Shown: in pieces, positions 7,675 through 49,455 of the stretch
How positions within the stretch are numbered: the first letter of the stretch is position 1
Layout of the letters: every line of letters begins with the position of its first letter
DNA from: a virus
Lineage: Duplodnaviria > Heunggongvirae > Uroviricota > Caudoviricetes
Virus record (IMG/VR): IMGVR_UViG_2571042390_000001
Reading direction: 5' to 3' (one strand)
Length of the DNA stretch: 64,000 nucleotides
The notes under the pieces: generated by a model
What the model was told of the DNA's origin: nothing
Databases searched by the model: none
Seen by the model: the letters and a program-made list of their open reading frames with translations, nothing else
Position numbers and translations under genes: made by a program

Positions 7675-7899
7675 ATTAATTTGCTGTTTCTAAAACGGAA
7701 TGTATGATCTGCATCATCGACTGAAGTCATCCATTGCTGAAATTTTTAGTTGATCTTCCATGTTTTCAGGCTTATATTCATGCCGTCGTAGCAAATTCTG
7801 CGACCGGGTTTGACAGCCTGAATGTTAGTGCGGACAACCGCAGATTTCCGATATTGCGGTATTTTTGTGTCCGTAAACCGCGTTACGCCCGAATTATGG

Positions 7900-8000
7900 T
7901 GGGGCGTGATGGGGAGGCTTCGGCCTGCTGGTTTCACTAACGCCAGTCTGTCAACCCTGTCACGTCCTGCCACCTGTTTGACAGCGGGTGGCAGGTTGTT
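7900..8000 (+). ncRNA. Candidate c4-like antisense regulatory RNA (immI type), copy 1
   Basis: Non-coding region before icd-like gene; hairpin about 7966-7995; segments about 7921-7926 and 7935-7941 complementary to RBS region about 8007-8019. Confidence 0.35.
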
Positions 8001-8024: not shown

Positions 8025-8249
8025 ATGGTTAATGCCAATCCTTGCTCACGTCCAGAATTCATCTGGCGTTTCCACTCCCTGCAAAAACGCTGCGATCACT
8101 TCGCAATTGCCGCAACCGAAAAAGAAGCCCGTTCTCTGATCCCTGATCAGCATGGTGTTCTTACTGGTCGTTTCTCTACTTCCCCACAACCAAACACTAA
8201 TCCCTGGTATCGCAATATTACCAATCCCGGCATTGCGGAGGCTCACTGA
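8025..8249 (+). CDS. Icd-like small protein (host cell-division inhibitor Icd-like family)
   Basis: EFIWRF motif; stop overlaps start of the Rha/Ant-like gene; paralog at 48299. Confidence 0.55.
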   Translation: MVNANPCSRPEFIWRFHSLQKRCDHFAIAATEKEARSLIPDQHGVLTGRFSTSPQPNTNPWYRNITNPGIAEAH

Positions 8250-8956
8250 TGGGTATCTGCATTCTCGAAAAACTATCAATGACCAGCATTGAGATTGCGG
8301 AGCTGGTGGGAAGCCAACACTCTGACGTTAAACGTAGTATTGAGCGTATGGTTGCTCGAAGCATTATCCGAAAACCGCCAATGGCTGTTTTCGAAAAAAT
8401 CAATAACTTAGGATTGCGTCGTGGCGTTGAGGCTTACGTCTTCGAAGGCGAGCAAGGCAAACGAGACAGCATCATTGTCGTCGCGCAGCTCTCTCCCGAA
8501 TTCACCGCCCGGCTGGTGGACCGCTGGCGCGAACTGGAAGAACAAGTACGCCAGCCGTTGACCGAAATAGAGATGATCGCTGCAATGGCTGCGAATGCAG
8601 TTCAGCAGCAAAAGCTGATTCATGCTGTTGAGTCAAAGGTTAGCCAGGTCGCTGAAACCGTCGAGCAAATAAAGAAAGGCAATATTCCGGAAGGCTACAT
8701 TGGCTACCGCCAGTTGGCGGCGAAATGCGGCCTGACTGAAGCCAAATGCCGAAACCTTGTCAACGCTTACCGGATTCCCACCGATACACATGAGTTTTTG
8801 ACTCCAGAGGGGGTATTGTCGCGTCGTTCCATCGTGGCCTTATCTCCCTTCATGAATGCTTTTAACCGGATGATGTCGGAGGCTGAACACCGAGGAAAAC
8901 GCTGGTATCACCCCAAAATGGGGCAATTCCAGGTGATCGGTTGGGGAGGTGAGTGA
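8249..8956 (+). CDS. Rha-family phage regulatory / antirepressor-like protein
   Basis: N-terminal TSIEIAELVGSQHSDVKRSIERMVA Rha-type signature; occupies the ant position of an immI-like module. Confidence 0.6.
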   Translation: MGICILEKLSMTSIEIAELVGSQHSDVKRSIERMVARSIIRKPPMAVFEKINNLGLRRGVEAYVFEGEQGKRDSIIVVAQLSPEFTARLVDRWRELEEQVRQPLTEIEMIAAMAANAVQQQKLIHAVESKVSQVAETVEQIKKGNIPEGYIGYRQLAAKCGLTEAKCRNLVNAYRIPTDTHEFLTPEGVLSRRSIVALSPFMNAFNRMMSEAEHRGKRWYHPKMGQFQVIGWGGE

Positions 8957-9153
8957 TGGACATCATGCAGGCGGTAAAAAAAATCAGGGAAGGACAGGCT
9001 GAAGTGTGCCGCCGTAAAGCATGGAGTGTTGGTGTATGGGCCTGGCCTGATAATTACTCTACTACCGGATGGTTTTGTATTAATGGACTCCAGATCCGGG
9101 AAGTTGATTTATCGACGGCTGATATAGTCGGTAATGATTGGATCGTGACTTGA
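8953..9153 (+). CDS. Small DUF2829 (Tad2-family)-like protein
   Basis: AVKKIREGQAEVCRRKAW and C-terminal ADIVGNDWIVT signature; 4-nt overlap with Rha gene; same domain is fused to Rha in 48514..49455. Confidence 0.5.
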   Translation: MMDIMQAVKKIREGQAEVCRRKAWSVGVWAWPDNYSTTGWFCINGLQIREVDLSTADIVGNDWIVT

Positions 9154-18038: not shown

Positions 18039-18239
18039 TTGCGGTTACTTAACGTGGCAGAACTTATCCCTGCAGGAACTAATGCTATCGCTCGTCGTCG
18101 CTCATGGCAGCAGGCTCTATGTATTGAGATCTCGAAACGTATCAATGGAAGTTTTGAAGCTCGCAATATTGTTACTGGCGATAAGGTTCACATAACCCCG
18201 GAAAGTGCAAGCGCTGATGATTGGGAGTTTGTACATTGA
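18039..18239 (+). CDS. Hypothetical protein (66 aa)
   Basis: Short ORF between nuclease-like gene and next ORF. Confidence 0.3.
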   Translation: MRLLNVAELIPAGTNAIARRRSWQQALCIEISKRINGSFEARNIVTGDKVHITPESASADDWEFVH

Positions 18240-21092: not shown

Positions 21093-21167
21093 GATGGTGT
21101 AGCTCAGCGGTAGAGCAGTTGGCTGTTAACCAACTGGTCGGTGGTTCGAATCCACCCACCATCGCCA
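21093..21167 (+). tRNA. tRNA-Asn (anticodon GTT)
   Basis: Cloverleaf: acceptor GATGGTG/CACCATC, T-arm GGTGG-TTCGAAT-CCACC, anticodon loop CTGTTAA, 3' CCA. Confidence 0.8.
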
Positions 21168-21172
21168 ATTTA

Positions 21173-21259
21173 GGGGAGTTAGTCCGTAGGGGTAGCGGGG
21201 TAGACTGTAAATCTACTGTCATTGCGACTCGGGTGGTTCGACTCCATCACTCCCCACCA
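21173..21259 (+). tRNA. tRNA-Tyr (anticodon GTA), long variable arm
   Basis: Acceptor GGGGAGT/ACTCCCC, anticodon loop CTGTAAA, type II variable arm, 3' CCA. Confidence 0.7.
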
Positions 21260-21263
21260 AATT

Positions 21264-21339
21264 GCCGGTTTAGCTCAGTTGGTAGAGCAGTCGCTTTGTA
21301 AGCGAATGGTCAGCGGTTCGATCCCGTTAACCGGCACCA
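21264..21339 (+). tRNA. tRNA-Thr (anticodon TGT)
   Basis: Acceptor GCCGGTT/AACCGGC, D-arm TAGCTCAGTTGGTAGAGC, anticodon loop TTTGTAA, 3' CCA. Confidence 0.8.
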
Positions 21340-22309: not shown

Positions 22310-22385
22310 GGCCCTTTAGCTCAGTGGTTAGAGCGGGCGACTCATAATCGCACGGTCACCGGTTCAAGTCCGGTAGGGGCCACCA
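22310..22385 (+). tRNA. tRNA-Ile2-like (anticodon CAT; may read AUA after lysidine modification, or be tRNA-Met)
   Basis: Near-identical in outline to E. coli ileX-type tRNA: GGCCC(T)TTAGCTCAGTGGTTAGAGC ... CTCATAA ... GGTTCAAGTCC ... CCA. Confidence 0.75.
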
Positions 22386-22837: not shown

Positions 22838-23413
22838 ATGTTAATGGCGAACGATAACGCATATACAGAAGAAGATCTCATTTTGAGTGACTTCATAGGG
22901 AAGCGTGAACGCTGGACCCAAAAGCGAGAGGAAATTTACGCCTCATTAGTTCGCAAAGGCGTCAATATCGAAACCGCACAGAGCGGCGATATGACAGTGG
23001 TAAGCGTTGGATTGCACGGTGTAAGCGTGTCAGCAATCAATCATGAGCCATACGTTGCGTTATCCGAGTCAATGGTAAGGTTAGTTAAGTTCCTGAAATA
23101 CACAGAAGCGAATAATGTAATCATTGGCAAAAAGAATATCCCTTTTTCCTCGGCTTTTTACTGGATGATGAAAGGGCTTGATGCCCGGCGGACATCATGG
23201 CCCAAAGGGAGCTATATATCGATGTTCCGTGGCAGTATTGGCAGCAAAGAAAAGCTCTTCGAATTCTTGCCGGAAGAGGCATTCGATATTGTGGAAGGGT
23301 GCGATGTGATGGTGATGCCTCGCCTGGTAATGATGAATGGGGATTTACAGGCGCAGACAGACTGGTTTGCAACTGGTGTGGATATTATCGCGACTGACTG
23401 GGAGGCTTTCTGA
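22838..23413 (+). CDS. Protein with C-terminal DUF2829 (Tad2-family)-like domain (191 aa)
   Basis: C-terminal AFYWMMKGLDARRTSW ... DIIATDWEAF matches the DUF2829 pattern. Confidence 0.5.
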   Translation: MLMANDNAYTEEDLILSDFIGKRERWTQKREEIYASLVRKGVNIETAQSGDMTVVSVGLHGVSVSAINHEPYVALSESMVRLVKFLKYTEANNVIIGKKNIPFSSAFYWMMKGLDARRTSWPKGSYISMFRGSIGSKEKLFEFLPEEAFDIVEGCDVMVMPRLVMMNGDLQAQTDWFATGVDIIATDWEAF

Positions 23414-23805
23414 TGTACGGGACTACCAAATTAAGCACTCAACAGGCCACCAATATGGAGTGGTCTATCGCTAACTGTAAGATCGAGTCATGCAATGCCA
23501 CGCGTACTGATGTGGGCCATAAAAGCACTATAACAGGCTATCTAGTAATGACCACCAGGGGGATAAGGGTTAGATTTCGCTGGAAAGCAGAGCAAGTAAC
23601 CCCATTCAGAGAGCCATCAATGCCGCTGCAGGTTGAGCAGGATTATCTATGTTTACCAGAAATAGATGGAGGAATGCTGGTGGAGTCTGATGGTAGTAAG
23701 GCTGATTTTGAAGCCAATTTGAAGCTGGCACAGGCCGTAATCAATAGTTATCGCGGACAGTGGATCGCAAAAGTGAAACATGTTGTTCGTTTGTCTCGCT
23801 GGTAG
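23413..23805 (+). CDS. Hypothetical protein (130 aa)
   Basis: Start overlaps upstream stop. Confidence 0.4.
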   Translation: MYGTTKLSTQQATNMEWSIANCKIESCNATRTDVGHKSTITGYLVMTTRGIRVRFRWKAEQVTPFREPSMPLQVEQDYLCLPEIDGGMLVESDGSKADFEANLKLAQAVINSYRGQWIAKVKHVVRLSRW

Positions 23806-28449: not shown

Positions 28450-28483
28450 ATAACTTTAAATAATTGGCATTATTTAAAGTTAG
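28450..28483. other. lox-like recombination site (13-bp inverted repeats around an 8-bp asymmetric spacer)
   Basis: ATAACTTTAAATA-ATTGGCAT-TATTTAAAGTTAG, arms 12/13 complementary; same outline as loxP (ATAACTTCGTATA-N8-TATACGAAGTTAT); about 150 bp upstream of cre homolog. Confidence 0.6.
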
Positions 28484-28634
28484 GCTATAATTATGGGTAG
28501 ATGATCAGTATTGACATCACTGAAAATACGCGCCTCGAATCAAAGGCTTGAATCTTGAAAATTAACTTATAGCTACCCTGTCATTTTTATATTTTTCGCG
28601 TAGCGTTATCTGTATATAGAGGTTAAATAGTTTC

Positions 28635-29663
28635 ATGAGTGAATTAATTATCTCTGGCAGCTCCGGTGGTTTTCTGCGCAACATTGGCAAAGAGTACCAG
28701 GAGGCCGCAGAAAACTTTATGCGGTTCATGAATGACCAGGGGGCTTATGCGCCGAATACTCTGCGCGACCTCCGGTTGGTGTTTCATTCATGGGCGCGCT
28801 GGTGTCACGCTCGCCAGCTTGCCTGGTTTCCGATCTCACCAGAAATGGCCCGCGAGTATTTTCTTCAGCTGCATGATGCCGATCTGGCTTCGACCACCAT
28901 TGATAAGCACTACGCCATGCTGAATATGCTGCTTTCGCATTGTGGCCTTCCGCCACTTTCGGATGATAAAAGTGTTTCTCTGGCTATGCGGCGCATCCGG
29001 CGCGAAGCGGCAACTGAAAAAGGCGAACGAACAGGCCAGGCTATACCGCTTCGGTGGGACGATCTGAAACTGCTCGACGTCCTGTTGTCCAGGTCAGAAC
29101 GGCTGGTGGACCTGCGCAACCGGGCTTTTCTCTTTGTTGCATACAATACGCTGATGCGTATGTCGGAAATCTCGCGTATTCGTGTAGGAGATCTGGACCA
29201 AACAGGTGACACTGTCACGCTACATATTTCACACACGAAGACAATAACGACCGCCGCCGGGCTTGATAAGGTGCTTTCCCGTCGCACTACCGCTGTGCTG
29301 AATGACTGGCTGGATGTTTCCGGGCTTCGCGAACATCCTGACGCAGTGCTGCTCCCGCCGATACACCGTAGCAATAAGGCCAGGATCACGACAACGCCCC
29401 TTACTGCACCTGCAATGGAGAAAATATTCAGCGACGCCTGGGTGTTGCTGAATAAAAGAGATGCTACGCCAAACAAAGGAAGATACCGGACGTGGACCGG
29501 GCATAGTGCACGCGTCGGGGCCGCTATTGATATGGCTGAAAAGCAGGTGTCTATGGTGGAGATCATGCAGGAAGGAACCTGGAAGAAACCGGAAACACTT
29601 ATGCGGTATCTTCGCCGTGGCGGCGTGTCTGTGGGGGCTAATAGCCGCCTGATGGATTTGTAA
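28635..29663 (+). CDS. cre: Cre-like tyrosine recombinase
   Basis: WTGHSARVGAAIDMAEKQVSMVEIMQEGTWKKPETLMRYLR parallels the Cre C-terminal catalytic region (WSGHSARVGAARDMARAGVSIPEIMQAGGWTNVNIVMNYIR). Confidence 0.85.
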   Translation: MSELIISGSSGGFLRNIGKEYQEAAENFMRFMNDQGAYAPNTLRDLRLVFHSWARWCHARQLAWFPISPEMAREYFLQLHDADLASTTIDKHYAMLNMLLSHCGLPPLSDDKSVSLAMRRIRREAATEKGERTGQAIPLRWDDLKLLDVLLSRSERLVDLRNRAFLFVAYNTLMRMSEISRIRVGDLDQTGDTVTLHISHTKTITTAAGLDKVLSRRTTAVLNDWLDVSGLREHPDAVLLPPIHRSNKARITTTPLTAPAMEKIFSDAWVLLNKRDATPNKGRYRTWTGHSARVGAAIDMAEKQVSMVEIMQEGTWKKPETLMRYLRRGGVSVGANSRLMDL

Positions 29664-29668
29664 ATTAA

Positions 29669-29677
29669 ATTTCTAAC
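29669..29677. promoter_or_regulatory. Operator-like motif TTTCTAACA downstream of cre
   Basis: Upstream of ORF 29737. Confidence 0.4.
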
Positions 29678-29736
29678 ACATCTTTTTAGATTAACGCCTT
29701 TGCTGTAAAGTACCCTCGCCTATTTAGGAGGGTGCT

Positions 29737-30081
29737 TTGCAGAGCCAAATCACGGAATCAAGACGCTTCAAGGTGGATGGTTACACCGTAACCTTCGCCG
29801 CTGGTGTTAAGAACAGTCATGCTGTTGTTGTGTTCGGCATCATGACCGGGCTTGAGGCCGTCCCTGTGTTTACCCTCGAAAAAAACTGGCGAAATCTGGA
29901 GGAAGCAGAAAGCTACGTCCGGAAAGTAACCATCATTGCCGCCGAAAAACTCCTGGCCCACTATCAGGAAAATTATCGCACTATGGTCGAGAAGATTAAT
30001 CTCGCTTTCACTCGCCCCACTACCGGCTTTATTGCACCGAATACTAATGCAGGTCGATATCCGGCAAGGGGGCGTCGGTGA
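29737..30081 (+). CDS. Hypothetical protein (114 aa)
   Basis: TTG start with AGGAGG RBS. Confidence 0.45.
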   Translation: MQSQITESRRFKVDGYTVTFAAGVKNSHAVVVFGIMTGLEAVPVFTLEKNWRNLEEAESYVRKVTIIAAEKLLAHYQENYRTMVEKINLAFTRPTTGFIAPNTNAGRYPARGRR

Positions 30082-30554
30082 AAACTTATTACCCATCTCT
30101 GAATTGTTACCCGTCTTCCTATCCAGAATTATCCGGGAAGCTGTTAGCTCTATTAGCTAAAGCACCTACGGAATGGTTTAAGCCAGTCGTTATCAATCCA
30201 CACTTCCTGGATTACGGATCTGTTCGCACTCGTAACGAACTCAAAAACCTACTGGCGCATGGATTCATTCGACACCGTTCCGGTAAAGGCTATCAGTTAG
30301 CGATTGCGCCAGAAGAGGCCGTGCGGCTATTCGCATATCGTGACAGCCAGACAAAAGCTCGGGTAATAGCTCAAATACTTCATAACGGCAGCACCTATGC
30401 CCGCCAGTTTGGCGGCGACACGTCGCAGTTCTTGCGGGCGGTGCGATCGCTGGAGGAGCAAGGAATTATTGAAAGTTCCTGTCTTCCTGTTCCTACCGTT
30501 CCACATATCAAACGTCGGGTTTACACCTTCACGCAGAGAGCTAAAAAACAATGA
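30078..30554 (+). CDS. Hypothetical protein (158 aa)
   Basis: GTG start overlapping upstream stop. Confidence 0.4.
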   Translation: MKTYYPSLNCYPSSYPELSGKLLALLAKAPTEWFKPVVINPHFLDYGSVRTRNELKNLLAHGFIRHRSGKGYQLAIAPEEAVRLFAYRDSQTKARVIAQILHNGSTYARQFGGDTSQFLRAVRSLEEQGIIESSCLPVPTVPHIKRRVYTFTQRAKKQ

Positions 30555-31045
30555 TTTACGTAAAAGTGAAACGCCTACATCCGGCAGCAAAACTTCCAGC
30601 TTATGCCACCTCCGGATCGGCGGCGATGGATTTTGAGGCTGTTGAAATAAAACCATGCGTCGATAGCAATGGTGCAATTTCCTCAAGCTGGTGGGTGTAT
30701 ACCGGACTGGCTATGGAGATCCCGCCCGGCTGGTGTCTGAAACTCTATCCGCGATCCGGATTGGGCTGCAAAAAACATACTCGCCTGGCTAACTGCGTAG
30801 GAATTATCGACTCCGATTATCGCGGCGAAATCATGGCAAAACTGATTACTGATCCCGGCGGGGAAGGCGTTTGTCTCAAGCCTGGAATGGCGGTCATGCA
30901 AGGCATTTTTGAGCGTGTTGAACCGGTATCGCTGGTAGAAGTTGATGAACTCGATGAAACAGAGCGAGGTGCTGGTGGCTTTGGTAGCACATCGGAAGAC
31001 CGCATTGAAATCAAGCGTACACCGCTTCAGTACGAAAAGTTTTAA
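30551..31045 (+). CDS. dut: dUTP diphosphatase (dUTPase)
   Basis: Conserved dUTPase motifs AYATSGSAAMD, PRSGL, GIIDSDYRGE, RGAGGFGSTS. Confidence 0.85.
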   Translation: MIYVKVKRLHPAAKLPAYATSGSAAMDFEAVEIKPCVDSNGAISSSWWVYTGLAMEIPPGWCLKLYPRSGLGCKKHTRLANCVGIIDSDYRGEIMAKLITDPGGEGVCLKPGMAVMQGIFERVEPVSLVEVDELDETERGAGGFGSTSEDRIEIKRTPLQYEKF

Positions 31046-31059
31046 GTAGAGGAAAGATT

Positions 31060-31722
31060 ATGGCCAGCACTTTTCAGGTGTTCCCCAAATACAAAAGCCA
31101 CAGCATCATTCGGGCATCGAAAATCAAAGATATTGTTATTGTCGGCGAAGCTTATGCGCCCATTTTTGGCAGTATCGAAGTCGTTGAGCCAAAAGGAATG
31201 ACGCTTCGTGTTGATGGTGTGTTCTTGGAAAAATTCCGACCGCAAATAGGAGGATATCTCGTCACTGCTGAAAATGGCTATCTGGTCTATGTGCCAGAGA
31301 AAGCATTTGAAAAATGCTATAGCCGGGTTAACGACGCCTCCGAAAATGGGGTATCGCTCAGCATTGAAGGTCACAATGGGGTGACATTCATTACAGCCAG
31401 GGACGTAACTATTTCTGCTGGCGGTATCGCTACTCTACAAGAAGAAATCGACCTTGAAGCAGCCGACTTTTCTGACGCGCTGATGTGGCTGAAGGATGGC
31501 AAGAAAGTTGCCCGACGTGGGTGGAACGGCGAAAACCAATTCTGCTGGCTGGTTCCCGAAGGACAGTACCCGGCACGAATGGAAGCCATTAAGGGATATT
31601 TCCCCGGCGATCTCGTTCCGTATGGTGCTTATTTCGCCTTAAAAAATGCACAAGGTGTAGTTGTTCCGTGGGTTCCTTCTGTAGGCGACTTACTGGCATG
31701 TGACTGGTTTGTGGTGGAGTGA
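31060..31722 (+). CDS. Protein with C-terminal DUF2829 (Tad2-family) domain (220 aa)
   Basis: ALMWLKDGKKVARRGWNGENQF ... VPWVPSVGDLLACDWFVVE, a close match to the DUF2829 signature. Confidence 0.6.
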   Translation: MASTFQVFPKYKSHSIIRASKIKDIVIVGEAYAPIFGSIEVVEPKGMTLRVDGVFLEKFRPQIGGYLVTAENGYLVYVPEKAFEKCYSRVNDASENGVSLSIEGHNGVTFITARDVTISAGGIATLQEEIDLEAADFSDALMWLKDGKKVARRGWNGENQFCWLVPEGQYPARMEAIKGYFPGDLVPYGAYFALKNAQGVVVPWVPSVGDLLACDWFVVE

Positions 31723-31728
31723 TTTAAC

Positions 31729-32496
31729 GTGGAAAATACTAAAGCAATTCAATACCGCTTGCGTAATGGCCTGCTGGTGGCTGTTAACGCCGACATGTCA
31801 CTGCCGTTTGACACGATTGAACGCACTATCATGACGTATCTCGGCTTTAATGAAGAACTGAATGAAGAGCATGGCGTAGCTATATGGAACGATGCAGATA
31901 ACGGCGCTCGTCGTCATATTACAGCCAGAGGAAAAGACTACTCTCTGGAAGAACTGTTTACCCTTGCACAGTCTTTCGAATGTGTAGCATTGGACCTGTT
32001 TAATGATCATGCTATAGCGCAACGACTTATCCGCGAGCTTGGGCTGTCCGTTACCCCAATCATCTTTAGAAATGGCAGCCTGACTGGCACATGGCGCGTA
32101 GAACGCATCTCAAACTACCTTCCATATAACCGACTGTTAAATGGAGTAATCTCCGGCGTTAATCAGCCCGTAGCGTGTGAAAATGTAAACCTGGTTGTCG
32201 CTGTTTTGGCAACCGCATGTCGTGTTATCGGTTTGGCTAAACAGGCATTTATTCATTTCCCAAATGGTGCAGAAGGTAGCGCAGAGATTATCGCGTGTGA
32301 TTTCGAATTTACCTGGATGCTACGAGAATATCTGGACCAAACAGTGTTCCGCGCCGAAGAACTGGATATGTATATCACGTCAACGATTCCTGATGATGTG
32401 CGTGCTGAAGCAATCGCTACAGCAAGGGCCAAATGCCGTGCGGCGATTGCAGAGCAGGCCAAAGAAGAAGTTAAGGAAGTGGCAGATGGCGACTAA
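31729..32496 (+). CDS. Hypothetical protein (255 aa)
   Basis: GTG start; in operon with dut and the DUF2829 gene. Confidence 0.4.
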   Translation: MENTKAIQYRLRNGLLVAVNADMSLPFDTIERTIMTYLGFNEELNEEHGVAIWNDADNGARRHITARGKDYSLEELFTLAQSFECVALDLFNDHAIAQRLIRELGLSVTPIIFRNGSLTGTWRVERISNYLPYNRLLNGVISGVNQPVACENVNLVVAVLATACRVIGLAKQAFIHFPNGAEGSAEIIACDFEFTWMLREYLDQTVFRAEELDMYITSTIPDDVRAEAIATARAKCRAAIAEQAKEEVKEVADGD

Positions 32497-33580
32497 GAGC
32501 AATATTTATAAAGATCCGCGCTGGCTGTCGCTGGTGGAGAAATATAAAGACAATTGGGTTCTGGCAGCAAAAGAATTGTTTGATATTGATTTAAGCCACC
32601 AGCAACAACAAATTGTTGAAGCTATACAGCCCAATAATGCAAAAGCTACTGTCACCACTCCGCATGGGATCGGACGACCGCAAGTGCTTGCTGTTATTAG
32701 TACCCTTTATACGATTATGTATCCTGATTCCCGGACAGTAATTGTTTATCCAAAATCAAATGCTTGCAAAAAAGGAATTGTTGCATATGTGTGGCAATGT
32801 TGGGAGGCATTACTGAAAAAACAACCTTTTATCATTGAGTATTTTAAGGTCGGTGATAGCGGTCTGATGTTCAATGAATTTTGGGGAATGTGCTTTTGTA
32901 ACTACCGCCTTAACTATGAAGATAGCATTGCAGGTCACTACGCCGACCATCTGTTATTCATTATTGTGGATTCCGCACATATCAGCGATCGGGCATACAG
33001 TATTGTGTGGGCAAGCATGACTAGTGGTGATTCACGCATATTGCTCACTTCAATTCCGTCACCAGAGGAAATAGGATTTTTTTATGATTCTCATCATGGG
33101 CGTGCTTTAGCTGAAGATAATCCGAGTGGTGCCTATAAAGCCATTAAGCTGAGTGCTGAGGATTCACCATTTATTACCCAAGAATATCTTGATCATTTTG
33201 CCGAAAGGTATGGCGGGCGAAATAGTGATGACTACCGTCGTATGATTCTTGGTGAGTTCCCTGGTATTAGGGAGGCTGTTCTTGAATCAGATATGCCGAA
33301 GACAATGCGCTTTTCGATGCCTGATGGTAGTGAATGGACAATACCATTACGAGTGATAGCCCGGCATCATGCGCAGCACCACGCCAAAAAACATGGCGTC
33401 ACGACATTAGAATGGTTGAAATCGCACACCATTCCACTCTTCACTGCAGATCACAATGCTATCGTTGAGTGGGCAAAAACAATTCCGTGGGAGAATGTCG
33501 CTGAATACGCCCACATGCTAAAACCGCCGAAAGACAGGCAAGAAATTAGCTGGCTGACAGCAGAAAAAATCATTGAGTGA
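32486..33580 (+). CDS. Terminase large-subunit ATPase-domain paralog with degenerate Walker motifs
   Basis: Homologous to PacB-like N-terminal domain (DPRW, HQQQQI, FYDSHH blocks) but P-loop is PHGIGRP and Walker B is IIVDS; no nuclease domain; ATG at about 32486. Confidence 0.55.
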   Translation: MATKSNIYKDPRWLSLVEKYKDNWVLAAKELFDIDLSHQQQQIVEAIQPNNAKATVTTPHGIGRPQVLAVISTLYTIMYPDSRTVIVYPKSNACKKGIVAYVWQCWEALLKKQPFIIEYFKVGDSGLMFNEFWGMCFCNYRLNYEDSIAGHYADHLLFIIVDSAHISDRAYSIVWASMTSGDSRILLTSIPSPEEIGFFYDSHHGRALAEDNPSGAYKAIKLSAEDSPFITQEYLDHFAERYGGRNSDDYRRMILGEFPGIREAVLESDMPKTMRFSMPDGSEWTIPLRVIARHHAQHHAKKHGVTTLEWLKSHTIPLFTADHNAIVEWAKTIPWENVAEYAHMLKPPKDRQEISWLTAEKIIE

Positions 33581-33587
33581 TAGTAAG

Positions 33588-33618
33588 AAGCCCGCCTGGT
33601 TGAGCGGGCTTCTTTTCA
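33588..33618 (+). terminator. Rho-independent terminator (between convergent genes)
   Basis: gaagcccgc/gcgggcttc stem followed by T-run. Confidence 0.55.
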
Positions 33619-33996
33619 AATATTGGAACCATATAGTTCACGTAGTTTTTTCGCTACTGAAGATACGGGGATTTCACCAGTTGCAGCCCCCACTGCAAGC
33701 TCCACCAGCACGGGATCATCATATACCTGTATACCGTTACGGCGTAGAAATAGCAGCGCACTGTTTAGCGCGGTACGCTTATTGGCATCATTGAATATAT
33801 GCCCTCTCGCCGTAGCCACCAGGTAGGTGGCGGAGACTTCGAAAAGGTCGGTGATCTCTTCGTAGGCAACTCTGGCCTGAACTCTCCCGATAATGGCCTC
33901 TGCCCTACCCGGATCTGACATTCCCGGCAGGCCGCCGTAGCGGCTTATATTCGCATCATGAAGCGCAATAAGTTCTTCCGGTGATATATGCCTCAT
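33616..33996 (-). CDS. doc: Doc toxin (Fic/Doc family, death-on-curing)
   Basis: Sequence recalled as near-identical to P1 Doc ([25 protein letters not shown] ... [19 protein letters not shown]). Confidence 0.9.
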
Positions 33997-34217
33997 TATC
34001 GGTTAACCAGTTCCTTGTTGGTGGAGTCCAGGGTGTCAAACAGGGATGCAAATTCAGCATCCAGCGCCGCCTTTTTGTAGGCTTCGAAAGTAGCCTTGCT
34101 GACAATTACTGCTGGTTCACGGCCTCTGCGGGTGATTTCAACCTCTTCCCCGGCTTCAACATTGTTGAGCAATTCAGAAAGGTTGCCGCGCGCGGTACGG
34201 AAGTTAATAGATTGCAT
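33996..34217 (-). CDS. phd: Phd antitoxin (prevent-host-death)
   Basis: [15 protein letters not shown] ... matches P1 Phd as recalled; start taken at the ATG two codons inside the track ORF. Confidence 0.9.
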
Positions 34218-47497: not shown

Positions 47498-48091
47498 TTT
47501 TAAGTTGAATTGAAAAACTCTCCGATGTACATTCACTACCGATTGGCACACCGGTCAACTTTTTGAGACAAACTGTTTAGTTTTTCGTATTATTGCCTCC
47601 GCCATACCTATGGCGGTGCAATATAGGTGGCTGAAAAGCCCCCGTTGACTCACGGTGTTCCAGCCTTTATTGCGCCGCCACCAGACCGTGGAACAGTCGA
47701 TGGCGGCTCCGAAAGCAAGGAGTCACAACACTATGAACAACTACAGTCTTTTCCCATCACTCGTCTTCCACCACTCACGCGATAATCTGCATTCTTTGCT
47801 CGCGCCGGGGGTGTCAAAATGACTGTTCGCTACCTCAACTTTCAAATCAAGAACATTACTGGCGGTTGCTATGACTGGTTTGTCACTCTCGGAAAAGAAG
47901 TGATCACCGGGAAGCTGGATGAAGTGAAAGCTAAAGCAATGGCCTACGCCTGCAAGCAAGTCAGGAAGAAATCCGCCAAAGCATAAAATACTGACTGTTG
48001 CGCCCTGGCATTATCGTGGGGTATATTTCTACGGCACCTTAGAAAAACGGGTGCCGGGATTGGAACCCCGGATAATGTCAAAGGCGACACA

Positions 48092-48113
48092 GACGCCGAA
48101 CGCGTCTTTTTTT
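48092..48113 (+). terminator. Rho-independent terminator
   Basis: gacgc/gcgtc stem followed by T7. Confidence 0.5.
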
Positions 48114-48149: not shown

Positions 48150-48260
48150 CTCAGAGATCAATGGTAGTGCTGGCTGGGCTGCCGAAAGGCAGGCCGGTTC
48201 CCTTTGACGCCGGTAGTTCCAACCCAGTCAGTGCTACCGCCATTGAGATTGGAACCTCAC
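48150..48260 (+). ncRNA. Candidate c4-like antisense regulatory RNA, copy 2
   Basis: Segments at about 48187-48191 and 48200-48206 complementary to RBS region of icd-like gene 2 (about 48280-48294). Confidence 0.35.
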
Positions 48261-48298: not shown

Positions 48299-48514
48299 AT
48301 GGCTACTATCCCTACCCCAACTCATTCTGAATTTATCTGGCGTTTCTATTCCTGCCAAAAACACCTGTATATCTGCGTCATGGCTGCTACCGAAGCAGAG
48401 GCGCGCTCATACCTTCCCGAAGAACCCTGCATTTTTGCTGCTCGCTTCACTCTTGATGCGATGGAGATCCTCAATTACTGGAATCTGCCGATGAACTGCG
48501 TGGAGGTGCACTGA
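48299..48514 (+). CDS. Icd-like small protein (paralog of 8025..8249)
   Basis: SEFIWRFYSCQKH motif; stop overlaps start of downstream gene. Confidence 0.55.
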   Translation: MATIPTPTHSEFIWRFYSCQKHLYICVMAATEAEARSYLPEEPCIFAARFTLDAMEILNYWNLPMNCVEVH

Positions 48515-49455
48515 TGAATCTGTCCATCTCTCAAAAAGCGACAATGACCAGTATTGAGATCGCGGAACTGGTGGGAAGTCGTCACTCTGATGTTAAACGC
48601 AGCATCGAAAGACTTGTTGCTAAAGGAGTTATCCAACATACGCCATTGGCTACAGTTGAGAATAATCAATCACTTAGCCCTAATAAATACACAAAAGCCT
48701 ATTTCTTCGAAGGCGAACAAGGCAAGCGCGATAGTATTGTCGTCGTCGCGCAGCTCTCTCCCGAATTTACCGCCCGGCTGGTGGACCGCTGGCGCGAACT
48801 GGAGAATGCCCGGGTACAGTTAAAATCAAAAGCCGAAATCCTGGCTGAAATGGCGCAAATGCATCTTGAGCATGAACGCCGGATCAACGCCGTAAATGCC
48901 CAGGTAGCCGAGGTATCGGCACAAGTGTCCAGGGTCGCTGAAACCGTTGAGCAAATCAAGAAAGGCAATATGCCGGAAGGCTACATTGGCTACCGCCAGC
49001 TGGCGGCGAAATGTGGCCTGACTGAAGCCAAATGCCGTAACCTTGTCAACGCTTACCGGATTCCCACCGATACACATGAGTTTTTGACCCCCGATGGCTT
49101 GCTTGCGCGACGCTCCATTGTGGCCCTTGCCCCCTTCCGGAAAGCCTTTAAGCAGGTGATGTCGGAGGCAGAACCACGCAATAAACGCTGGTATCATCCA
49201 AAGATGGGGATGTTTCAGGCAATCCACCATCCTGTGCCTGAAAGCCCAAAGGATAATCTGTCACTACATACCGCCAGAGAGAAGATCAGGACTGGATACG
49301 CAACAGTGTGTCGTCGTTCTTCCTGGCCTGAAGGTATATGGGTGTGGCCCGAAGGTGGATCACGAAAGCACTGGCGCACCATCCGTGACGGGAAAATCCA
49401 TGCTATTGATTTAGCTCCAGAGGATGTTATTGCTATGGACTGGATTGTTAGTTAA
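48514..49455 (+). CDS. Rha/antirepressor-like protein fused to C-terminal DUF2829 (Tad2-family)-like domain
   Basis: N-terminal TSIEIAELVGSRHSDVKRSIERLVA; C-terminal VCRRSSW ... EDVIAMDWIVS aligns with separate ORF 8953..9153. Confidence 0.6.
   Translation: MNLSISQKATMTSIEIAELVGSRHSDVKRSIERLVAKGVIQHTPLATVENNQSLSPNKYTKAYFFEGEQGKRDSIVVVAQLSPEFTARLVDRWRELENARVQLKSKAEILAEMAQMHLEHERRINAVNAQVAEVSAQVSRVAETVEQIKKGNMPEGYIGYRQLAAKCGLTEAKCRNLVNAYRIPTDTHEFLTPDGLLARRSIVALAPFRKAFKQVMSEAEPRNKRWYHPKMGMFQAIHHPVPESPKDNLSLHTAREKIRTGYATVCRRSSWPEGIWVWPEGGSRKHWRTIRDGKIHAIDLAPEDVIAMDWIVS

Follow-up and report, generated by a model that had tools for sequence, protein, structure and literature searches.

We propose that the 220-residue protein encoded at positions 31060..31722 of the Caudoviricetes record IMGVR_UViG_2571042390_000001 is a two-module anti-defence protein in which a C-terminal Tad2 sponge is joined to an N-terminal Dec-like adaptor; we put the probability of this reading at roughly 0.65, and hold its sponge part to be likelier than its adaptor part. 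The stretch of DNA analysed, 64,000 nucleotides long and referred to below as the window, is recognisable by sequence as a D6-type phage-plasmid of the P1 group, and its gene 31060..31722 is called the target. The proposal draws on homology, fold, residue conservation, domain architectures and genomic contexts, from which we infer the oligomeric states, the ligands, the anti-defence activity and the timing of expression.

Tad2 has been recorded in such elements, in 93% of D6 and 56% of P1 phage-plasmids by automated anti-defence typing (10.1101/2025.09.12.675607), so the core of the finding is already known. The sponge itself is thus not new; what is new is the Dec-like partner domain, together with Tad2-like copies on antirepressor genes. 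In the searchable literature we found neither the Dec homology of the N-terminal module, nor its recurrent partnering with two unrelated sponge families, nor degenerate Tad2-like domains on immI antirepressors. Alarm-nucleotide sponges are central to phage counter-defence, and the fusion partners of known sponges have already given a new family; the target points to a sponge partner that has no Pfam model, the Dec-type OB/stalk domain. If this partner is functional, it would be an extra module for the anti-defence repertoire and would link a capsid-decoration fold to immune evasion. One element moreover holds a graded series of Tad2 domains (intact, altered, and degenerate on an antirepressor) that should be useful for questions about the re-use of the sponge fold, and the Thoeris-type immunity of a host could be weakened by a sponge that its resident plasmid expresses.

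Tad2-like and Dec-like modules of the target

An earlier, sequence-only reading of the window had placed DUF2829-like domains in the open reading frames (ORFs) 31060..31722 and 22838..23413, and both ORFs, with the motifs quoted for them, lie exactly where it located them. DUF2829 is the Pfam family PF11195, presently named "Tad2-like", for which the gathering score is 25 bits; residues 136-219 of the target match it at 80.2 bits. With the full-length target as the query, a phmmer search of the PDB recovers the ModTad2 entries 9eib and 8v3e at E ~6e-20 (E ~8e-21 with the C-terminal domain alone), and HgmTad2/AcrIIA7, SPO1 gp34.65 and SptTad2 at E 4e-10 to 5e-8. ModTad2 is the closest solved relative, with 46% identity to residues 131-220. 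A monomer model of the full target, built with AlphaFold2 (AF2) from a 36-sequence alignment, has in this domain a helix (residues 137-145), strands at 149-152, 161-165, 191-195 and 201-203, a further helix (208-212) and then a strand (216-219), which matches the order of elements in the Tad2 fold; Foldseek comparison of this model with the PDB gives Tad2 structures at every rank from 1 to 24 (target-normalised TM-scores 0.60-0.88).

Conservation extends to the ligand pocket. The ligand of SPO1 Tad2 is contacted by W25, N26, W73 and D79, with secondary or water-mediated contacts from S76, T78, H71, D67, T65 and I63 (10.1101/2023.05.01.538930), and the equivalent contacts in HgmTad2 are W21, N22, G23, W87, S90, T92 and D93 (10.1101/2023.11.15.567273). 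In an alignment to SPO1 Tad2 corrected for a one-residue chain offset, W155, N156, W204, S207 and D210 of the target fall on W25, N26, W73, S76 and D79; among 36 homologues all of these but N156, which is K in one allele, are invariant. The sequence-only reading had taken the domain for a ligand-binding module, which agrees with the nature of the Tad2 family as tetrameric sponges for immune nucleotides (10.1101/2023.05.01.538930; 10.1101/2023.11.15.567273; 10.1101/2025.08.24.671296). Its suggestion of diversification likewise fits, both with differences in ligand contacts between the copies in the window and with the insertion segment of the target (residues 165-190, between beta2 and beta3), which occurs in the target family as at least three unrelated alleles that reassort with the N-terminal alleles. 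The beta2-beta3 insertion determines cyclic-dinucleotide binding in HgmTad2.

The ModTad2 clade, one enterobacterial member included, inhibits type II Thoeris (10.1101/2024.01.03.573942) and also binds cUMP/cCMP, in a second pocket (10.1101/2025.08.24.671296). With ModTad2 and the Tad2 family the target shares the fold, the W-N...W-x-x-S-x-x-D pocket, the position of the variable insertion and carriage of the gene by a phage; the characterised members are stand-alone proteins of ~90-105 residues, whereas the domain of the target stands behind a 130-residue Dec-like module, and its adenine-side contacts and cyclic-dinucleotide pocket residues deviate. Pfam searches of the target gave no match to the other sponge families Sequestin (PF21825) and Acb4 (PF13876), which were seen only in relatives or in a neighbour of one relative.

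The N-terminal domain had been described as unrecognised, a description that no longer holds, since profile and Foldseek searches recognise in it a Dec-type OB fold followed by a stalk. The region matches nothing in Pfam or NCBIfam, and its matches in PHROGs are all families of unknown function. A single-sequence search of the PDB with the target gave a weak match to Dec, the decoration protein of phage L (6e3c, E 0.0019); a profile of 21 N-terminal regions then has Dec as its sole PDB match at E 1.6e-7, in an alignment that spans profile positions 20-129 and Dec residues 22-127. The AF2 model of residues 1-97 is confident (pLDDT 87, pTM 0.79), and in the Foldseek search with the full model Dec is the first match outside Tad2 (E 8e-4), followed by a large gap. 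The strands of the modelled OB fold (16-30, 33-41, 48-52, 66-69 and 75-78) and its helix (53-59) coincide with the elements of Dec, which are beta1 21-32, beta2 35-40, beta3 47-50, alphaOB 52-59, beta4 63-68 and beta5 73-77 (PMC6449081). The stalk, present as two main alleles in the target family, aligns with a part of Dec that lacks order in the monomer and, as a three-stranded spike, holds the trimer together (PMC6449081; PMC11398494). By these profile and fold comparisons the N-terminus of the target is a Dec homologue, which does not establish it as a decoration protein: Dec itself is a 134-residue stand-alone structural protein encoded with virion genes, whereas the module of the target has a sponge attached and belongs to an accessory operon.

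In the mechanism that we propose, the C-terminal 90 residues would assemble into a homotetramer with ligand-binding pockets between the subunits, and these pockets would sequester ADP-ribose-derived alarm molecules produced by TIR proteins, such that a Thoeris-type effector stays off. The first candidate ligand would be His-ADPR of type II Thoeris, because ModTad2 is the closest solved relative; 3'cADPR or cyclic mononucleotides are alternatives. The N-terminal 130 residues may trimerise through the stalk and provide the sponge with an adaptor for oligomerisation or anchoring, or else form a second functional head. Across relatives the Dec-like module has been gained and lost independently of Tad2.

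Several observations weigh against this proposal. The adenine-side contacts of SPO1 Tad2 are not conserved (T78, H71, D67 and T65 correspond to G209, V202, Q198 and N196), so that the ligand cannot be named; the residues of the cyclic-dinucleotide pocket of HgmTad2 (R31, K46, S47 and N85) are absent from the target alignment, and a pocket of the HgmTad2 type for cGG was rejected on these grounds. The insertion loop (residues 173-185) is modelled with low confidence, at pLDDT below 50, as is the stalk (residues 92-130) in the AF2 monomer, which resembles in this the disordered C-terminus of the Dec monomer. In the OB domain no conserved polar pocket is evident, the invariant positions being I22, F83, G64, G65 and similar ones. 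The residues of Dec that are key for binding to the P22 capsid, K30 and Y49 (PMC6449081), are V26 and R50 in the target, and capsid binding of its OB domain can therefore not be inferred. Finally, the symmetries of the two modules (trimer for Dec, tetramer for Tad2) are mismatched within one fusion.

Module architectures and the role of the Dec-like partner

Scanning 120 homologues with local hidden Markov models (HMMs) reveals a range of architectures. OB-stalk-Tad2 is the usual form in P1-like elements. The D6 counterpart, orf114 (L002:42126-42566, minus strand), has an in-frame deletion of the OB core, so that the stalk and Tad2 directly follow residue 20; as a natural deletion mutant it is useful for probing the role of the OB domain. 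In homologue P0053 a dUTPase is fused in frame to Tad2, whereas P0091, which occupies the locus of the target gene in a P1-like element, is a 135-residue Dec-like protein without Tad2. The order is reversed in P0093, where Tad2 precedes the OB fold; this gene belongs to an N4-like phage, in which it is surrounded by small early genes and adjoins a gene of PF13876, the Pfam family of the Acb4 sponge. P0079, P0099 and P0100 combine OB and Tad2 with PF21825 (Sequestin), and gp52 of Klebsiella phage LASTA (L007:2486-3361, plus strand; 291 residues) has OB at residues 3-88 and a C-terminal PF21825 but no Tad2. The middle of LASTA gp52, ~120 residues that end in CKPDIFEATYE, may be yet another module of this kind; an Acb4-like identity was considered and rejected, because neither Pfam nor a BLASTP comparison with a PF13876 protein gave a match.

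The OB homologue also stands alone in several phages, in phage Bas106 after a Rha regulator. In Ralstonia phage GP4 the 91-residue gp05 (L008:2483-2758, plus strand) lies between the portal and major head genes and adjoins a CsrA-like gene, and a related phage annotates its homologue as "head-tail adaptor"; no other context points to a structural role like that of Dec. The OB, stalk and insertion-loop segments show free reassortment across 26 P1-like alleles: stalks A and B as well as loops A and B are found, for instance, with OB type A, and OB type E is combined with either stalk and with any of the loops A, B and C, as would be expected for an arms-race gene.

These architectures bear on a tentative extension of our explanation, one that we regard as possible without favouring it: that the Dec-like OB/stalk is itself anti-defence, either sponging up another signal or binding a defence protein, which would make the target a two-headed inhibitor. 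Sponge families do fuse with each other (Tad2-Acb4, Tad2-Sequestin and Acb4-Sequestin), and Sequestin was uncovered by this rule through its fusions to Tad2 and Acb4; the screen worked with Pfam families only (10.1101/2025.07.12.664507), and a module without a Pfam model would escape it. The target is built in the same manner, from Tad2, a linker and a small phage module, with the difference that its partner falls outside the described sponge families. That partner accompanies two unrelated sponge families, Tad2 and (without Tad2) Sequestin, stands on either side of Tad2, is found by itself both at the target locus (P0091) and in small phage proteins, and in P0093 has a gene of the Acb4 family for a neighbour. 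OB folds, moreover, often bind nucleotides or oligosaccharides. Against a second head stand the lack of an evident conserved charged or aromatic pocket, the D6 protein that keeps stalk and Tad2 having lost the OB core, and the two structural contexts, namely Dec, the best-characterised homologue, as a capsid protein and the stand-alone homologue of phage GP4 among head genes. The broader claim, that the Dec-like OB/stalk constitutes an unrecognised counter-defence family (a new sponge, a binder of defence proteins, or an assembler of multivalent sponge particles), we consider unlikely; such a family would be discoverable by guilt-by-fusion logic, given its two unrelated sponge partners, its occurrence in either order and its stand-alone forms.

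If the module instead tethered the protein to the phage head, the sponge would travel with the virion and extend the P1 habit of carrying Dar anti-restriction proteins in the particle. The homology to a proven capsid binder covers the OB "leg" as well as the stalk, a stand-alone homologue sits in the head-gene cluster of Ralstonia GP4-like phages, and the window does encode a DarB/Ulx-type set of virion-borne anti-restriction proteins. Dec, however, sits on the outside of the capsid, from where no protein is injected (PMC6449081), and its capsid contacts K30 and Y49 are not conserved; the target lies in a recombinase/dUTPase accessory operon far from the head genes, the type phage D6 lacks the OB core, and the N4-like homologue is in an early region. 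Tethering to the virion is accordingly improbable. Most improbable of all is that the DUF2829 proteins are anti-CRISPRs or small toxins, names that have been attached to the family: HgmTad2 was first reported as AcrIIA7, PDB entries 8kbi and 9kzr carry that name, and NCBI labels the relative P0128 "MW1434 family type I TA system toxin". E. coli, however, is not known to have type II CRISPR-Cas. The anti-Cas9 activity of HgmTad2 and its homologues could not be reproduced (10.1101/2023.11.15.567273), none of the four Tad2-like proteins of the window matched an NCBIfam model, and ~4% of complete E. coli genomes stably carry the target on plasmids.

Further Tad2-like copies in the window

Besides the target, the gene 22838..23413 encodes a protein whose residues 103-190 match PF11195 above the gathering score, at 39.3 bits. 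In hhalign it aligns with the target family at 94% probability (E 1e-7). The four Tad2-like copies of the window are too divergent to be recent duplicates; phmmer with either of the two strong ones as the query fails to recover the other. The pocket keeps both Trp residues and the Asp, with Asn replaced by Pro and Ser by Thr; the N-terminal 98 residues have no match in Pfam, the PDB or NCBIfam, nor to Dec. Only 10 homologues are found among 5.8 billion proteins. The protein is a plausible candidate for a second, divergent sponge with another specificity. A 130-residue ORF (23413..23805, plus strand; PHROG 7004, of unknown function, and without a Pfam match) overlaps the stop codon of this gene by one base, which suggests translational coupling, and its product may be a functional partner.

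The other two copies lie in immI loci. Both loci are true immI operons, consisting of a C4 RNA, an icd-like gene and a Rha-type ant; they share with P1 immI the order c4-icd-ant, and differ from it in that Ant is of the Rha type rather than P1 Ant1/2 and in that the operons end in a mini Tad2-like domain, free in one and fused in the other, that is not known from P1 immI. In locus 1 the ATG of the free 65-residue gene overlaps the stop of ant as TGATG and follows a GGAGG ribosome-binding site (RBS); in locus 2 the domain forms the last 65 residues of Ant (residues 249-313). Identity is 40% between the two mini-domains (E 3e-18) and 67% between the Ant bodies, which stay collinear as far as the junction; the free and fused domains thus form a gene fusion/fission pair.

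The membership of these mini-domains in the Tad2 fold is remote. Neither reaches the PF11195 threshold (15.1 bits, E 0.034, for the free ORF; no match for the Ant C-terminus), their profile has no Tad2 match in the PDB, and hhalign against a single family gives a weak 7.8% probability. An exhaustive search with the Ant C-terminus returned only 7 matches, three of them unrelated repeat proteins that match a W-rich stretch; another, P0137 (96 residues, E 2.8e-6), itself scores 23.9 bits (E 6e-5) against PF11195. When the template was broadened to a 30-sequence non-redundant Tad2 alignment that includes ModTad2, HgmTad2, SPO1 Tad2 and the family of the second gene, hhalign aligned the mini-domain profile end to end at 86% probability (P 5e-6), whereas 30 column-shuffled templates stayed at or below 13% (best score 20.4, against 32.9) and the reversed template reached 0.1%. 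On the strength of this controlled alignment we accept the four copies counted by the sequence-only reading as one fold superfamily, two of them canonical and two degenerate; its two immI-linked copies do exist, below the Pfam threshold and as remote homologues only. Comparison of the pockets ranks the four as well: the target keeps W/N/W/S/D, the second gene changes N to P and S to T, and in the immI copies V or I replaces the second Trp and S or P the Asn, with the first Trp and the Asp retained. The idea that the domain is attached to different effectors is weak, as the Dec-like module and the 98-residue N-terminal domain are not recognisable effectors, and the one fusion to a protein of known activity, that with Ant, has a degenerate pocket.

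A role of the mini-domains in the service of Ant, in oligomerisation or regulation, appears at least as likely as sponge activity. We give about even odds to the specific view that they are not sponges, and form a lineage-specific C-terminal domain of Rha-type Ant that has been split off in one locus as a translationally coupled subunit. Besides the fused and TGATG-separated arrangement with collinear Ant bodies and the loss of the second contact Trp and the Asn, this view is favoured by the absence of the whole insertion region (65 against 88 residues), by the restriction of the mini-domain to D6 among 50,697 phage records, both times at the immI end beside Ant, and by the parts that are kept, the N-terminal helix and core sheet, which are those that make tetramer contacts in Tad2 (10.1101/2023.05.01.538930). 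It is opposed by the invariance of R19, R20, W23, D56, D61 and W62, which match R152, W155, D210, D215 and W216 of the target family and would allow a reduced pocket, and by a divergence faster in the mini-domain (40% identity) than in Ant (67%), which would fit an arms-race role too. In our proposal the 65-residue copies, as degenerate Tad2 folds, would more likely serve Ant than be classical sponges. That a mini-domain might let a host immune nucleotide modulate Ant, and so couple alarm signalling to prophage induction, is less likely than the reading of the Dec-like partner as a new counter-defence module.

Six-frame translation of the window and scans with local HMMs gave no further convincing Tad2-like copy. 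A possible fifth one, the 66-residue ORF 18039..18239 (plus strand; D6 orf11) with RRRSW...DDWEFV, was rejected as a probable chance resemblance: it has no Pfam match, and in hhalign its scores (14 for Tad2, 18 for the immI profile) lie in a range that shuffled controls also reach. This ORF sits between pmgM-like and pmgR-like genes. Just upstream of the second C4 RNA there is an Rfam match to isrK, an Hfq-binding small RNA (48034..48112, plus strand; 61 bits, gathering score 50), whereas the equivalent stretch of locus 1 (7772..7824) is matched by the c4 target model "c4-a1b1", and the two immI loci thus have differently organised leaders.

Genomic setting

Table 1. Positions of the target, its modules and the other features discussed (coordinates of the window)
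Feature	Coordinates	Strand	Basis or remark
C4 antisense RNA, immI locus 1	7892..7977	+	Rfam RF01695, 68.8 bits; upstream of icd 8025..8249 and ant 8249..8956
Free 65-residue mini Tad2-like gene, last cistron of immI locus 1	8956..9153	+	D6 orf17
Second Tad2-like gene, 191 residues: N-domain (1-98) and Tad2-like domain (103-190)	22838..23413	+	PF11195; D6 orf6
Sigma-70-like promoter	28464..28491	+	11/12 consensus positions, ahead of the gene string; consensus match only
dre recombinase	28635..29663	+	First gene of the string; two small ORFs follow
dUTPase	30551..31045	+	PF00692; immediately 5' of the target
Target gene, 220 residues: Dec-like OB fold, stalk and Tad2 sponge domain (putative)	31060..31722	+	ORF; GAGGA RBS 8 nucleotides upstream
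OB-fold domain homologous to phage L Dec, residues 1-91	31060..31332	+	
Gly/Thr/Ser-rich beta "stalk", residues 92-130	31333..31449	+	Aligned with the C-terminal trimer-spike region of Dec
Tad2-like (PF11195) domain, ModTad2 type, residues 131-220	31450..31719	+	Pfam, PDB and fold matches
isaA-like gene	31729..32496	+	Directly after the target
364-residue ORF	32486..33580	+	Last gene of the dre-dut-Tad2 string
Terminator-like hairpin	33594..33609	+	Directly 3' of the last gene of the string; consensus match only
C4 antisense RNA, immI locus 2	48157..48244	+	Rfam RF01695, 77.1 bits; upstream of icd 48299..48514 and ant 48514..49455
Mini Tad2-like domain, last 65 residues of Ant, immI locus 2	49258..49452	+	Within ant 48514..49455

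The target is the fifth gene in a tightly packed string of genes on one strand that begins with dre (Table 1) and is an accessory region, not a morphogenesis module. A search of the window with the P1 C1 operator consensus ATTGCTCTAATAAATTT, allowing up to 3 mismatches, gave 0 matches, from which nothing follows for the timing of expression. The annotation of Escherichia phage D6, read in reverse, explains the gene order of the window, and positions 29000..34000 are 96% identical to D6 over 69% of their length; the coverage is no higher largely because the 364-residue ORF is absent at the D6 position, where pdcA and doc come after isaA.

A copy of the target gene that is 100% identical is found on the 93-kb plasmid NZ_AP019805.1, and homologues occur in 212 of the 5426 complete E. 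coli genomes (~4%), nearly all on plasmids of ~90 kb; of the genomic sites of these alleles, 212 of 219 are plasmid-borne. All E. coli alleles are annotated merely as "DUF2829 domain-containing protein".

The 364-residue ORF itself has no Pfam match, and its sole match, below threshold, is to the large subunit of the PBSX terminase (NCBIfam, E 0.038); in another P1-like element a 364-residue gene stands at the equivalent place beside P0091. Elsewhere in the window, Rfam places four tRNA genes (21093..21336 and 22310..22382, plus strand) between the morphogenesis genes and the second Tad2-like gene, in a region for which the D6 annotation lists three tRNAs.

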